Source: Bifidobacterium breve
GTDB taxonomy: Bacteria > Actinomycetota > Acidimicrobiia > Acidimicrobiales > Acidimicrobilacustridaceae
Direction: 5' to 3'
Length of the DNA stretch: 64,000 bases
NCBI GenBank assembly: GCA_945862505.1
Contig: CAMAYJ010000004.1
Span: 581 to 64,580 of the forward strand
Shown: one piece after another, positions 1 to 4,516 of the stretch
How the letters are laid out: each line of letters starts with the position of its first letter
How positions within the stretch are numbered: the stretch's first letter is position 1
Position numbers and translations under genes: made by a program
Notes under the pieces: generated by a model
Databases searched by the model: none
Seen by the model: only the letters and a program-made list of their open reading frames with translations
Told to the model about the DNA's origin: nothing

Positions 1-228
1 GTCAAACGACAACGTAACGAAATGGATGATGGTGAAAATCACTGCGAGTCCGCCAAAAAAACGGTGAATGTCGAGCAACCACGGCGCCGGGGATTTCCGA
101 CCCAACGCTCGAGTCGACAACGCGAGACCCCAGAGCACGGCGAGAGCAAGCAGTACCCATGCGACGATCCCCGTTGATCGGGAGACGTACCACCACACTT
201 TGGTGGCACCAAAGACCATTTCCGCCAT
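1..228 (-). CDS. Ferric reductase-like / MsrQ-like heme b transmembrane protein, N-terminal part (runs off the window edge)
   Basis: Not in the ORF track. My translation from ATG 228 is MAEMVFGATKVWWYVSRSTGIVAWVLLALAVLWGLALSTRALGRKSPAPWLLDIHRFFGGLAVIFTIIHFVTLSFD. The WYxSRxxG start, TM helices and heme-ligand-like His in LDIHR and IIHF fit this family; it lies directly downstream of apbE. Confidence 0.8.
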   Translation of the reverse strand, partial: MAEMVFGATKVWWYVSRSTGIVAWVLLALAVLWGLALSTRALGRKSPAPWLLDIHRFFGGLAVIFTIIHFVTLSFD

Positions 229-246
229 CTCAGAGCCGCTGATCTG

Positions 247-1203
247 TCATGAGCTCAGCGTAGGTCGCTTGACAACAAAGTCATTGAAATGGCCGGCCGC
301 GATGAGTTGTCCATCGTCGGCAACCAAAAGCCCCGATAACCCTGCACGCTCTAAAAGTGTTCGGCCAGCGATTGCGCCACCAATAAGTGCAGCTTTGGCA
401 TGCGCTTCGCCCCATGCGGCATGAGCAGCGATCACCGTGACAGACGTAAGGCCACTTTGTGATGGTTTTGCCGTCTTCGGATCAATGAGGTGATGGGCTT
501 CGCCATTCGTTGTCGACCATTTACGGCGCATGCGCGAGCTTGTCGCTACCGAACCTGATTCAAGACCCAGAACAGCGAGATCTTCACCGGGATGAAAAGG
601 GTCATCGATCACGATGACCCAACCGTCACCTTCCAGAGTTTCGCCGCCGACACGGATATCGCCACCAAAATCGAGACAAACCCCGGTTGCGCCATCCTCC
701 ATCGCCTGAGCGAAGAGGAGATCAGCAGCGTGCCCTTTGCCAATCCCTCCAAGATCAAAGTGAAGGCCGACCGGACCGTGGATAAGCGAGGAGCGAGCAT
801 CCAGAACTACTTCGTCGAGTACACCAGGCGAAGAGGAGAGAGCATTTATCTCGAAAGGGGCGCGATCAACGAGTTCATCGAACGTTTCGTCGTATCCAAG
901 TTCACGCAATACATCGAGAAGCGTTGGATCGAAAAGTTCATCGGTCGCTCTCCACGCATCGATGGCAAGAGCAACCACCGCAAACATTTCTGGACTTACA
1001 AATACCGGATCACCAGCGTGACGATTCAATTGAGAGAGTTCACTGCTGTCGATAAACCGAGACCAACGTTGCTCAAGATCCCGCATCCGAATTTCAACCC
1101 GATCAAGGATCGGTTCCGCTCGATCGTCATCGACAACGATTCGAACAACACAGTCACTACCCATCGCACGAAATTCACGCGAACTCGCCGCCAGCGCCGC
1201 CAT
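247..1203 (-). CDS. apbE: FAD:protein FMN transferase (ApbE family)
   Basis: Motifs FRAMGS, SELSQLN, LFDPT, DLGGIGKGHAAD, GGDIRV, ATSS, HHLIDPKT, TVIA and AKA. Confidence 0.93.
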   Translation of the reverse strand: MAALAASSREFRAMGSDCVVRIVVDDDRAEPILDRVEIRMRDLEQRWSRFIDSSELSQLNRHAGDPVFVSPEMFAVVALAIDAWRATDELFDPTLLDVLRELGYDETFDELVDRAPFEINALSSSPGVLDEVVLDARSSLIHGPVGLHFDLGGIGKGHAADLLFAQAMEDGATGVCLDFGGDIRVGGETLEGDGWVIVIDDPFHPGEDLAVLGLESGSVATSSRMRRKWSTTNGEAHHLIDPKTAKPSQSGLTSVTVIAAHAAWGEAHAKAALIGGAIAGRTLLERAGLSGLLVADDGQLIAAGHFNDFVVKRPTLSS

Positions 1204-1212
1204 GCCGATTAA

Positions 1213-1791
1213 TCAGGAAGCGCGAGTACGAGGCGGGGCCACCGTGGTGACTGGAGCCGGGGCAACGGTGACCACCGGAGCCGCGGTCGCAGGCGGTGAT
1301 GTCCCCGGTGCCGACGGAGATGCCGGAGCCGAGGTTGCCGGACTCGAAGCTGCTGGCGAACTTGAACTTCCTCCCGAGGAAGCCGGCACGACTCCCGCTG
1401 CGGACGCTTTCGAAGAATTAGCTGACGATGACGAGGGTCCGCCCGGGGAAGTCGACGTACCCGGCGAAGCAGTCGCTGGTCCTGCACCAGCTGCGGGCAG
1501 TGCCGCCGGGTCGGTTGCCGTTCCTGCCGTTGAGGACGCTTCTGAACCATCAACGACGGGAGCTCCGGTCACGTTCAGTTCCAGAGTGGCGGAGTTCGCT
1601 CCGCTACTTTGCTGACCACTCAGAGCCAGCGCAGCAACGATTGCGGCACTCGCCGCCAAACTCAGACCGGCAGTCAGCGCACGAGACGCTGGAGCAGTCG
1701 GGCCCTTCCGCTTTGCACGAGTCGCGGCCGAATGAGGCGTCGTTCCACTCTTTGCATCAGTTCGTTGTACCTCAGGGGCTTGCTCAGTCAT
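1213..1791 (-). CDS. Single-TM anchored Ala/Pro/Ser/Thr-rich low-complexity protein ending in PRTRAS
   Basis: Start re-assigned to ATG 1791 (MTEQAPE), which overlaps the upstream stop (ATGACTGA). Basic N-terminus RAKRK, hydrophobic ALTAGLSLAASAAIVAALAL, then a disordered tail. Sits between the acidic-tail gene and apbE. Confidence 0.75.
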   Translation of the reverse strand: MTEQAPEVQRTDAKSGTTPHSAATRAKRKGPTAPASRALTAGLSLAASAAIVAALALSGQQSSGANSATLELNVTGAPVVDGSEASSTAGTATDPAALPAAGAGPATASPGTSTSPGGPSSSSANSSKASAAGVVPASSGGSSSSPAASSPATSAPASPSAPGTSPPATAAPVVTVAPAPVTTVAPPRTRAS

Positions 1792-2305
1792 CGTCTTCAT
1801 CCTCTTCATCCTCTTGGTCCTCTTCATCCTCTCGGTCCTCGTCGTCGTCGTCGTCGCCATCATCCGAACGAGATGTCGTTGGCGGAGACGGCGGTGTCGC
1901 CGTGGCCGGCGGGCTGAGAACCGTCGTCGTCGCCCCCGAAGGGTTCTCCGCTACTCCACTCAGACCGACCGAACCAGAACTTGTCGACCCGTTCAATGAC
2001 GTACTCGAACCCGATGAAGAAGCCAACGGACGTTGCGTTCCTGCAGCGTTGGTCGAATCCTGATTGATTGGATCAGAAGTACTTTGAGTTGAAGAAGCTT
2101 CAGATCCCGCAGCGGCAGCAGTTGCATTGATCGGAACCGCAACCGCGAGTTGACTGACATTGGCGGCACTCAGTTGGCCGGCGGGCTTTGAAGCCCCAAC
2201 GGAAAGAATCCCGATATTCGCGGCGACCGCACCGCTCGCAGCCGTGACGACGATGGCGGCTGCGCCAGCAATAGAGAGTGCAATTTGTCTGTTCATGGAG
2301 TCCAC
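1784..2305 (-). CDS. Secreted/membrane-anchored low-complexity protein with a highly acidic C-terminal tail
   Basis: N-terminal signal/TM segment IALSIAGAAAIVVTAASGAVAA, Ser/Thr-rich middle, and terminal DDGDDDDDEDREDEEDQEDEEDEDDD. First gene of the operon divergent from the response regulator. Confidence 0.75.
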   Translation of the reverse strand: MDSMNRQIALSIAGAAAIVVTAASGAVAANIGILSVGASKPAGQLSAANVSQLAVAVPINATAAAAGSEASSTQSTSDPINQDSTNAAGTQRPLASSSGSSTSLNGSTSSGSVGLSGVAENPSGATTTVLSPPATATPPSPPTTSRSDDGDDDDDEDREDEEDQEDEEDEDDD

Positions 2306-2338: not shown

Positions 2339-2360
2339 AATGGTTAAGAAATGGCAAAGT
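2339..2360. promoter_or_regulatory. Candidate OmpR/PhoB-type tandem binding site
   Basis: AATGGTTAAGA AATGGCAAAGT: an 11-bp-period direct repeat (8/11 identical) in the divergent intergenic region. Confidence 0.4.
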
Positions 2361-2441: not shown

Positions 2442-3137
2442 GTGGATGTTTTATTGGTCGAAGATGACAACGCCATCGCTGAGCCCCTCATCAGAGGTCT
2501 TGAGCGACAGGGATTCGTCGTACATCGCGAGTCAACGGGACTTGGGGGCGTAGCCGCATTCCACTCTCGTCCATCAGTTGACATCGTTCTTCTTGACCTC
2601 GGACTTCCCGATATCGATGGCTACGAAGTGTGCCGACGCGTTCGGTCCGACTCGACGGTTCCGATCATCATCCTTACCGCACGCGGCGATGAAATCGATC
2701 GCGTCCTCGGACTCGAATTAGGCGCCGACGACTACATGGTCAAACCTTTTGGCTTCCGCGAACTCATTGCCCGGATCAATGCAGTTACCCGTCGCAGCAA
2801 TGCGCCAGGCACGACCAAAGAAGACATTGCCAAACTCACCGGAGATGTGACTCTCGACAGCCGCACTCGAAAAGTCACAGTGCACGACGAAGATATCCAA
2901 TTAACGCGCAAAGAATTCGATCTCCTCGCCCTCTTGGCGAGTGACGCCGGTGCAACCCAAACACGAGAAACAATCCTCGAACAGGTCTGGGATGCCCATT
3001 GGTACGGGCCGACAAAGACGCTCGATGTTCATGTCGCCTCGCTACGCAAGAAACTCGGCGATCCAACGATCATCGAAACCGTTCGAGGTGTGGGTTTCCG
3101 ACTTCGTTCGAACGCTGACAACGATTCAGCCTCGTGA
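2442..3137 (+). CDS. OmpR/PhoB-family response regulator
   Basis: Receiver motifs LLVEDD, LLDLGLPD, LTA, GADDYMVKPF, plus winged-helix LTRKEFDLL and IETVRGVGFR. Confidence 0.95.
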   Translation: MDVLLVEDDNAIAEPLIRGLERQGFVVHRESTGLGGVAAFHSRPSVDIVLLDLGLPDIDGYEVCRRVRSDSTVPIIILTARGDEIDRVLGLELGADDYMVKPFGFRELIARINAVTRRSNAPGTTKEDIAKLTGDVTLDSRTRKVTVHDEDIQLTRKEFDLLALLASDAGATQTRETILEQVWDAHWYGPTKTLDVHVASLRKKLGDPTIIETVRGVGFRLRSNADNDSAS

Positions 3138-4516
3138 TCCGACGTCTCCTCGCCTCCTATCTCCTTCTCACCCTCGTCGTACTCATCGCGCTCGAAGTAC
3201 CCCTCGCCCTGGGGTACCGCGATCACCAAATGGATCAGTTGACATCAGGCATTGAACGAGATGCATTCGTGCTGTCGTCCTACCTTTCCGATTCACTCTC
3301 CGGCGGAACGCCAGTTGACCTCACTACGGTCGTCACCAACTACACAGCATCGACAGGCGGCAGAGTCGTCATTGTCAACTCGACCGGCGATGTCCTCGCC
3401 GATTCCGAACCCGCCTCAGCAGGAAAACGAAACTTTCTGTCACGACCCGAAATTGCCGATGCACTCGATCGAGAGATTGCGACGGGAACTCGTTATTCAA
3501 CGACGCTAGGAACGGGTCTTGTGTATGTGGCCATTCCAATTTCGATCGGAGATCAGGTCTTCGGTGCACTTCGTGTGAGTTATTCAACCGATCAGGTCGA
3601 TGCCGAAGTCCGTCGCTACTGGGTCGTACTTCTCGGCGCCGGACTCGTCACCCTGATTCTTGCTGCAGCACTCGGAGTACTCCTCGCCCGATGGGTGACC
3701 CGTCCCATTGCCAAGTTGCGCGATGCCGCGACTCGGATAGGCGACGGCGAACTTTCTGCACGCGCCGAGATCGAACGCGGACCTCCCGAAATCAAAGACC
3801 TCGCGGCCGCATTCAATGCAACCGCAGTCCGTTTGGAGGAACTCGTCACCGCACAAGAACAGTTCGTTGCCGACGCATCCCATCAACTTCGAACGCCCTT
3901 GACTGCGTTACGCCTTCGCCTCGAAATGTTGGAAATCGATTCCAACGACGGCAATCGTGACGACATTGAGGGCGCCCGCAAAGAAGTACATCGAATGTCC
4001 AGAATGGTTGACGGACTCTTGGCGCTCGCAAGGGCCGAACGCACGCTGGGGGCACGTCCAGGACGCCTTGAACTCGACAAGGCGCTGCAGGAACGAGCCG
4101 CAGCGTGGCAGCCCGTTGCCGAAGAGCGAGACGTCTCCATCGTCGCTCGTGGCGGAGGGTTCAAAGCGCGCTGCACCTCGGACATGCTGAGCCAAGTTCT
4201 TGACAACCTCATCGCAAATGCCCTTGAAGTTGCTCCCGCCAATTCGGTGCTCACACTGCACGCAACCGCCGAGGATTCTTCTTCGGGATCAATCATTGCC
4301 ATTCACGTCGTTGATCAAGGTCCGGGCCTCACTGACGAACAGCGCGAGCGGGCTTTTGACCGTTTCTGGCGAGCCACCAATGAACGCGGTGAATTGGGAG
4401 GAACTGGCCTCGGACTCGCCATCGTTCAGAAACTGGTGGAATCTGAAGGAGGTCGAGCGGAACTTCGGGCCGCTGAAGGCGGCGGACTCGATGCCATACT
4501 CCTTTTCGGCAACTGA
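3134..4516 (+). CDS. Sensor histidine kinase (HAMP-HisKA-HATPase)
   Basis: Two TM segments, HAMP, ADASHQLRTPL, NLIANA, DQGPG and GTGLGLAIV. GTGA overlap with the regulator. Confidence 0.95.
   Translation: MIRRLLASYLLLTLVVLIALEVPLALGYRDHQMDQLTSGIERDAFVLSSYLSDSLSGGTPVDLTTVVTNYTASTGGRVVIVNSTGDVLADSEPASAGKRNFLSRPEIADALDREIATGTRYSTTLGTGLVYVAIPISIGDQVFGALRVSYSTDQVDAEVRRYWVVLLGAGLVTLILAAALGVLLARWVTRPIAKLRDAATRIGDGELSARAEIERGPPEIKDLAAAFNATAVRLEELVTAQEQFVADASHQLRTPLTALRLRLEMLEIDSNDGNRDDIEGARKEVHRMSRMVDGLLALARAERTLGARPGRLELDKALQERAAAWQPVAEERDVSIVARGGGFKARCTSDMLSQVLDNLIANALEVAPANSVLTLHATAEDSSSGSIIAIHVVDQGPGLTDEQRERAFDRFWRATNERGELGGTGLGLAIVQKLVESEGGRAELRAAEGGGLDAILLFGN

Follow-up and report, generated by a model that had tools for sequence, protein, structure and literature searches.

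Which protein receives the flavin when an ApbE-family transferase, the type of enzyme that moves flavin mononucleotide (FMN) from flavin adenine dinucleotide (FAD) onto proteins, is encoded in an operon that has no FMN_bind gene? The question is raised by positions 1-2305 of a 64,000-nucleotide stretch of contig CAMAYJ010000004.1 (hereafter the window, meaning the whole stretch analysed), in which four co-directional, tightly coupled genes on the minus strand encode an acidic protein (small1), a second small membrane protein (small2, the "tether"), an ApbE and an MsrQ-like cytochrome b. MsrQ-like flavinylation clusters are common in Actinobacteria and normally contain apbE and an FMN_bind gene, often with a NAD-binding domain, and genomes with orphan apbE genes imply undiscovered substrates (PMC8238504). 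Judged by gene order and conservation, the present locus is a real four-gene module in which disordered single-pass proteins occupy the place where the FMN_bind gene normally stands. The best single mechanism that we can offer, at a probability of roughly 0.4, is that the terminal Ser of the tether serves as a non-canonical ApbE flavinylation site.

A four-gene operon with disordered proteins in place of an FMN_bind gene

The operon has the following features (aa, amino acids):

1784..2296, minus strand: small1, 170 aa; N-terminal helix or signal sequence, AVAAN-GIL...P-G-L segment, disordered linker and poly-Asp/Glu tail
1928..1948, minus strand: ENPSGAT in the small1 linker; matches [ST]GA[ST], specific to a sub-clade
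1213..1791, minus strand: small2 (tether), 192 aa; basic N-terminus, one helix, ~134 disordered residues and a conserved tip
1618..1680, minus strand: predicted small2 membrane helix (~residues 38-58), after a conserved APASR; hydropathy 2.07
1216..1230, minus strand: small2 tip R-T-R-A-S-COOH; candidate non-canonical flavinylation site, Ser192
247..1203, minus strand: ApbE-family FAD:protein FMN transferase, 318 aa; PF02424, no signal peptide or lipobox
1..228, minus strand: N-terminal 76 residues of an MsrQ-like/Ferric_reduct six-helix cytochrome b; the gene is cut by the window edge

This anatomy of acidic-tail protein, tether, ApbE and heme protein is as described by a first-pass annotation made from the sequence. 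Small1 starts at the ATG at 2296 (MNRQ) rather than at the GTG at 2305, as its homologues begin with MNR. The ATG of small2 overlaps the small1 stop codon in ATGACTGA, an overlap that is conserved in the family and that constrains the terminal Asp-Asp of small1; the 216-aa open reading frame (ORF) listed for small2 by the ORF tool is overlong. A gap of 9 nt separates the small2 TGA from the ApbE ATG, and the cytochrome gene lies directly downstream of ApbE after ~18-27 nt, depending on the ATG chosen for it.

The first-pass annotation had cautioned that an FMN_bind gene might lie beyond the left edge of the window. Contig comparison showed that the region is 100% identical to several public contigs, including two (L001 and L002) that carry the complete cytochrome gene (198 aa) followed by a convergent enoyl-CoA hydratase gene. 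Because the cytochrome gene ends there and the hydratase gene comes next, no FMN_bind gene lies past the left edge on these identical contigs, where the flanking genes on both sides are unrelated, and the caveat is refuted. A Pfam scan of the window proteins and the L001/L002 neighbours likewise found no FMN_bind, DUF2271 or DUF3570 gene at the cluster. The sole RNA evidence found for expression of the operon was one 151-nt lake metatranscriptome contig, 100% identical to positions 2106-2256 within the small1 coding region.

Neither small protein had a match in Pfam or NCBIfam, and neither showed an FMN_bind domain (PF04205). AlphaFold2 models built on family alignments contained a single helix in each protein, at residues 34-60 of small2 and 3-32 of small1, with the remainder as coil (mean predicted local distance difference test score (pLDDT) 51.5 and 50.6, respectively), which agrees with the earlier remark that neither protein encoded upstream of apbE has a folded domain.

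The tether ends in a conserved tip that partly matches the flavinylation motif

The small2 helix is represented by a 19-residue segment with a Kyte-Doolittle hydropathy of 2.07, flanked by net charges of +4 on the N-terminal side and -1 on the C-terminal side, and by the positive-inside rule the C-terminus is predicted to lie outside the cell. Invariant columns of the family alignment (A33, S36, R37, G42, S44, I51 and L55) fall in the helix and juxtamembrane region. Beyond the helix, a spacer of 134 residues, 89% of which are Ala, Ser, Pro, Thr, Gly or Val, leads to the end of the protein, which reads P-R-T-R-A-S.

Forty-two tether-family sequences were assembled from the loci and from two profile searches, one word-indexed and one exhaustive, the latter giving 32 cluster representatives with E-values down to 1e-61. 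The last residue is Ser in 39/42 of these, preceded by Ala at position -1 (35/42), Arg or Lys at -2 (36/42), Thr or Ser at -3 (39/42) and Arg or Lys at -4 (34/42), while Arg and Lys together account for just 1.7% of the 35 residues ahead of the tip across all 42 sequences. The first-pass annotation had proposed that a C-terminal T-x-[AG]-S would be kept in homologues while the linker diverged. This is what we observed: the linker varies in length and sequence while the C-terminus stays [RK]-[TS]-[RK]-A-S, and the pattern [ST][RKHQ][AG]S fits the C-termini of 35 of the 42 relatives. Tip codons change synonymously, with Ser encoded by TCC or AGC according to lineage and the Arg and Thr codons also varying, and selection thus acts on the protein and not on the DNA or on the translation-initiation region of ApbE. 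Exceptions include L021, which has SHAS followed by PPPP, and L022, which ends in TQGS.

Set against the substrate motif D-x-x-[ST]-G-A-[ST], the tip has the acceptor Ser/Thr, the Ala at -1 and the Ser/Thr at -3, all in register. Outside the small1 linker, the canonical motif occurs in no ORF of at least 100 aa in the 64-kb window, which supports a role for the tip as the acceptor.

Other potential sites in the tether were also considered. Internal [ST]GA[ST] sites were not enriched (9 seen vs 6.4 expected, the same as for a permuted motif) and were discarded. The Ser of the APASR preceding the helix was likewise dropped as a cytoplasmic site, for several relatives have Ala or Gly at this position. 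An excess of GGA[ST] in tether linkers (11 vs 1.9 expected) came from the SGGATASS of one L019-like sub-clade (P0122-P0128), to which this sequence, resembling a relaxed flavinylation motif, is restricted. A variant C-terminus, PPPC[ST]GSKC(HH/P), was found in P0130 (L023:5001-5642) and P0169 and resembles a Cys/His metal or redox site; the variant tether of L023 still lies upstream of ApbE and the cytochrome, and no two-component system adjoins it.

The ApbE looks catalytically competent and has no export signal

The ApbE matches PF02424 at 174.5 bits (cut-off 25.6) over residues 14-287, and its best relatives in the PDB are TM1553, FmnB and the ApbEs. Catalytic residues are S241/H257/D285 in V. 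cholerae ApbE and S257/H273/D301 in FmnB (PMC12052999). Residues S222, H238 and E266 of the window protein align with the FmnB triad, Glu taking the place of Asp, and these three residues, together with DLGGIGKG and GGD, are invariant in 47 clade sequences. On the strength of these alignments, in which both the triad and the FAD-binding motifs are intact, the enzyme looks catalytically competent. The segment that reads DGLST in FmnB is E-A-H-A-K in the ApbE clade (residues 266-270), so that its Thr is replaced by a nearly invariant Lys; in other ApbEs, the Thr of D-x-L-S-T aids Mg binding.

No signal peptide, lipobox or membrane helix was detected in the window ApbE or in its clade homologues, the longest members included, a feature that the first-pass annotation had not noted. 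Among 19-aa windows starting in the first 40 residues of the protein, the highest Kyte-Doolittle hydropathy was 0.51.

The module is conserved in relatives, and its tip recurs in another phylum

Genome and metagenome scans with ApbE yielded 8 distinct relatives, and the sample was widened through protein searches and contig look-ups. Relatives whose ApbE is 85% to 42% identical were found in metagenome-assembled genomes (MAGs) labelled Candidatus Microthrix, Actinomycetota or Acidimicrobiia/Acidimicrobiales, and the order small1-small2-ApbE-cytochrome is kept across them down to the 42% level. Most also carry a divergent OmpR-type regulator, a HAMP-HisKA kinase and a Usp gene. Assembly GCA_945878645.1, a MAG that holds this locus, is labelled Bifidobacterium breve, which, given the labels of the relatives, is probably a taxonomic error.

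A more distant locus, L015 (L015:547-5182), entered the set solely through a single peptide word that its ApbE (28% identity) has in common with the query. On one strand of this ~40% GC contig are a signal-less ApbE, a 201-aa six-helix membrane protein with no Pfam match and an FNR-like FAD_binding_6/NAD_binding_1 protein; on the other are a regulator, a kinase, a rubredoxin and a 160-aa protein. The latter consists of an N-terminal hydrophobic helix, ~110 Ala/Glu-rich residues whose composition suggests a long helix, and the end ...SSRRSRAS. When the window and all fetched loci were scanned in six frames, the only ORFs of at least 60 codons that ended in such a pentapeptide were the tether genes and this L015 gene, which argues that the tip, not the spacer, is the conserved functional element. 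By its gene content, L015 is an independent cross-phylum analogue of the module, and as far as these gene neighbourhoods go, the tip accompanies a signal-less ApbE together with a membrane redox protein.

Small1 carries an acidic tail and, in one sub-clade, an SGAT motif

Small1 consists of a short N-terminus, a hydrophobic segment, the invariant AVAAN-GIL, a linker and an acidic tail, the last 32 residues having a net charge of -21. The N-terminal helix, the AANxGIL...PxGxL segment and a tail rich in His, Asp and Glu recur across the wider family; most relatives are His-rich in this tail, whereas the version in the window has lost its His. Such a tail may bind cations.

The ENPSGAT of the linker is the sole [DE]xx[ST][GS]A[ST] in any ORF of at least 100 aa in the 64-kb window. 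Motifs of the [ST]GA[ST] type are found in small1 of 7/9 of the closest lineages, L010 and L018 having lost SGAT, whereas the 15 other lineages have none. Tallied over the whole family, the motif is present in 9 of 24 sequences, which come from the closer sub-clade plus L019, and missing from 15 of 24. Within the close clade they occur 9 times vs ~1.3 expected from composition, permuted (non-overlapping) motifs occurring at most twice. The exact SGAT reported by the first-pass annotation is therefore present but is not a family trait, and a family-wide site at this position was ruled out, although a lineage-specific one may exist. Of that annotation's overall reading, the operon anatomy, the lack of folded domains and the conserved C-terminal motif held.

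An N-terminus of the small1 type (AANVGIL...PxGxLSA), or a similar anchor, also occurs on a different, apparently beta-rich C-terminal part at L024:5001-5413 (P0147) and L021:7606-8238. These anchor-like proteins adjoin OmpR-type regulator-kinase pairs, the case of a small1-type fusion being in a Microthrix MAG, which hints at a link between this type of anchor and two-component systems.

A possible route for flavin loading and electron transfer

The sequences show the gene content, its conservation, the motif and the lack of folded domains and of an export signal; that the tip is flavinylated and loaded ahead of export, that it shuttles electrons and that small1 binds metal is what we infer. 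In the mechanism that we favour, the MsrQ-like cytochrome b, with its two His pairs, would move electrons across the membrane, and the ApbE, its active site intact, would provide covalent FMN. The tether would replace the usual FMN_bind-domain acceptor, its tip being its only conserved element predicted to be extracytoplasmic, and FMN would be joined by a phosphoester bond to the terminal Ser. ApbE would load the unfolded tail of the tether in the cytoplasm, and the tail would then be threaded out through Sec, so that a flavin on a leash of ~130 residues could ferry electrons between the outer haem and acceptors located within the wall or past it. Small1 would contribute a second disordered single-pass protein whose acidic tail may capture cations, and the divergent two-component system probably controls the operon.

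The terminal Ser was ranked as the best mechanism because the tip matches [ST]-x-A-[ST] in register and in view of published work on ApbE: it flavinylates 7-residue unstructured tags, best at protein termini, and in the substrate motif a D-to-A change had a minor effect while a G-to-A change left ~50% activity (PMC12052999). In NqrC, a Lys of the substrate helps to activate the acceptor Thr (PMC12052999), and in FMN_red proteins the flavinylation sites lie on an unstructured C-terminal extension (PMC11334425). Cytoplasmic loading followed by Sec export is proposed because neither an export signal on the ApbE nor an FAD exporter in the cluster is present; Listeria FmnB, by comparison, is an extracytosolic lipoprotein that needs the dedicated FAD exporter FmnA/RibU (PMC9973259). 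A folded FMN_bind domain could not use the Sec route, which would explain the disordered spacer here and the single helix suggested for L015. The full scheme, in which a signal-less ApbE loads FMN in the cytoplasm onto the last residue of a protein that Sec then exports, giving a fold-less flavin shuttle whose design recurs across phyla, is nevertheless a tentative one, and we regard it as somewhat unlikely in all its parts.

Several observations weigh against flavinylation of the tip. The ApbE, signal-less in the clade as it is in L015, and the tip, predicted to be extracytoplasmic, would stand on opposite sides of the membrane unless loading came before export. Most relatives have Arg or Lys at position -2 of the tip, a position held by Gly or Ser in every known substrate; at -6, Pro, Ala or Thr takes the place of the conserved Asp; and only Ser, never Thr, serves as the acceptor, whereas characterised ApbEs favour Thr (PMC12052999). 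Two distant tethers end in PPPC[ST]GSKC, yet ApbE is kept beside them. There is no fold to shield the isoalloxazine ring, and we know of no precedent for loading before export. Finally, our search for a canonical substrate was confined to the 64-kb window.

Alternative explanations

The strongest competitor to flavinylation of the tip holds that small1 and small2 remain unflavinylated and belong, as accessory, sensor or scaffold subunits, to the cytochrome or to the kinase next door. The tip would then be a docking or processing signal, and the cytoplasmic ApbE would modify another target: either a cytoplasmic FMN_bind protein encoded elsewhere or the C-terminal tail of the cytochrome, which is cytosolic. 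We consider this a real possibility, if short of an even chance. A cytoplasmic location is predicted for the ApbE, and there are known examples of cytosolic ApbEs that act on cytosolic substrates (PMC12052999); the tip departs from the motif at Gly and Asp, and its basic residues are as conserved as its Ala-Ser, as those of a binding epitope would be. In both small proteins, conservation is highest in the membrane helix and the juxtamembrane segment, as if the helix packed against a partner, and it is also consistent with this reading that a small1-type N-terminus is found on another C-terminal part beside another regulator-kinase pair and that the L015 tip protein shares its operon with a kinase. 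The cytochrome tail does hold a semi-conserved GPGRA-x-[ST], but this is unlike the flavinylation motif and is absent in L023. Moreover, no known system recognises a C-terminus such as this one, and both the association of the tip with ApbE across phyla and its in-register match to three of the four positions of the ApbE motif are left unexplained. Small1 might instead be the substrate within the cluster, through the SGAT in its linker and either alongside the tether tip or in its place. The motif is enriched in the nine closest lineages and has the only extended match in the window; however, it is missing outside that sub-clade, its position drifts between lineages, small1 linkers are rich in Ser, Gly, Ala and Thr in many sequences that share ancestry, and the site faces the same topology problem as the tether. 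We therefore judge small1 an improbable substrate.

Two further explanations are much harder to sustain. Tether and ApbE share a reading frame in the window and in several close relatives, where just one TGA and three codons lie between them, and the tether stop codon is TGA in 12/12 loci, as might be expected if the tether were a membrane anchor or linker of ApbE that placed the enzyme outside the cell through stop-codon readthrough or frameshifting. Across loci, though, the spacer between the two genes varies from 3 to 9 nt and the relative frame differs in L008, L017, L018, L020 and L022, and on this ground such a fusion was rejected; the tip is conserved as a true C-terminus, and no natural tether-ApbE fusion was found among ApbE homologues, making this reading very improbable. 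Still less credence, close to none, is due to the view that the tether ORF is not a gene at all and that the region is non-coding low-complexity DNA or encodes an antisense ORF of 123-137 aa. Public gene callers miss small2 in the lineage of the window and call a 123-aa antisense ORF instead, a choice made on six public contigs and in L021; the exact tether protein is absent from a 15-billion-protein collection, the antisense frame is open in all close relatives, and the one polymorphism that distinguishes the contigs is silent in either frame. The antisense ORF (1202-1615, plus strand) has third codon positions that coincide with those of the tether frame, and for this reason both frames stay open. 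Against it stand the basic N-terminus, helix and tip shared by the tether family, with the profile-search E-values given above, the conserved overlap of the tether start with the small1 stop, the switching of the terminal Ser codon between TCC and AGC, and the fact that gene finders do call the tether frame in more distant genomes. On these grounds the antisense ORF was rejected as the real gene; conserved as it is throughout the family, the tether frame is a real gene.

Comparison with known flavinylation systems

Flavinylation of the tether would make the module a variant of the MsrQ-like flavinylation clusters in which the FMN_bind gene is replaced by two disordered single-pass proteins. 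As in those clusters (PMC8238504), which are also actinobacterial, apbE lies beside a PF01794 six-helix, two-haem protein, with presumed electron transfer to an extracytosolic flavin. Unlike them, the present cluster has no FMN_bind, DUF2271 or DUF3570 gene, a cytochrome with no NAD-binding domain, two disordered single-pass proteins and a divergent two-component system; its ApbE has no signal peptide, and the published pipeline would thus have excluded it. The cytochrome shares the Ferric_reduct fold and the conserved His pairs for haem b with MsrPQ (MsrQ/YedZ) and with the haem domains of NOX, FRE and STEAP, but the Acidimicrobiia version lacks an MsrP partner as well as any FAD/NAD(P)H domain, whether fused or adjacent, whereas L015 has an FNR-like protein.

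To our knowledge, all characterised ApbE substrates carry an [ST]GA[ST] motif and hold the flavin in or against a folded domain. Flavin-tag and FMN_red extension sites resemble the tip in placing a Ser or Thr in a short unstructured terminal segment, but they keep the full D-x-x-[ST]-G-A-[ST], in place of which the tip has Arg/Lys at -2 and no Asp, and the FMN_red flavin docks in a folded flavin-binding site while small2 has no folded domain (PMC12052999; PMC11334425). In Listeria extracellular electron transfer, an ApbE-type enzyme likewise loads a membrane-tethered flavin carrier, which sends electrons outward, in a Gram-positive envelope; there, however, PplA has folded FMN_bind domains, and electrons pass via Ndh2 and quinone, not an MsrQ-like cytochrome (PMC9973259). 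The cytosolic ApbE of Klebsiella pneumoniae, as far as it is described where PMC12052999 cites it, similarly has no signal peptide and acts in the cytoplasm, but its substrate is a soluble fumarate reductase with an FMN_bind domain, with neither a membrane cytochrome nor an exported partner in that account.

If the tip is flavinylated, it would define a class of substrate that has no fold, a C-terminal acceptor and a basic motif, and loading followed by export could be a route that needs no FAD exporter. The module would then be a minimal, compact envelope electron conduit in Acidimicrobiia that are abundant in freshwater and activated sludge. The pentapeptide offers a simple search handle for further systems and could serve as a short tag for enzymatic flavin labelling.

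The cytochrome, the two-component system and the intergenic region

The cytochrome fragment in the window scores 16.7 bits against PF01794, below threshold, and the full 198-aa protein on L001/L002 carries the domain. The complete cytochrome is ~198-201 aa long, and 12 orthologues all keep its four His residues, which form two pairs with spacings of 13 and 12 residues; the NCBIfam MsrQ match is far below its cut-off. After the last helix, the protein (L001:10985-11581) and its orthologues have a semi-conserved cytosolic YR-x-x-GPGRA-x-[ST]-V-[KR], and in some orthologues there is a further, [KR]RAS-like motif with a loose resemblance to the tip of the tether.

Upstream of the operon lie three further features:

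2442-3137, plus strand: OmpR-type response regulator, divergent from the operon
3134-4516, plus strand: HAMP-HisKA sensor kinase, divergent from the operon
2339..2358, minus strand: intergenic box TTTGCCATTTCTTAACCATT, two TTnnCCA half-sites 11 bp apart; conserved in a 10-locus alignment

The regulator-kinase pair adjoins the module in most loci. Its best NCBIfam models, all below cut-off, were CseB, CreB and MtrA for the regulator and a heavy-metal sensor kinase subfamily for the kinase. Scans for sigma-70 promoters and terminators gave background levels, and no FMN riboswitch or other known RNA was found upstream of the operon. Given its paired half-sites, the TTTGCCATTTCTTAACCATT box is likely a response-regulator site like those of OmpR/PhoB-type regulators. 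A TACGGT at 2304-2309 lies ~7 nt upstream of the small1 ATG, and the small1 transcript could thus be leaderless or near-leaderless.

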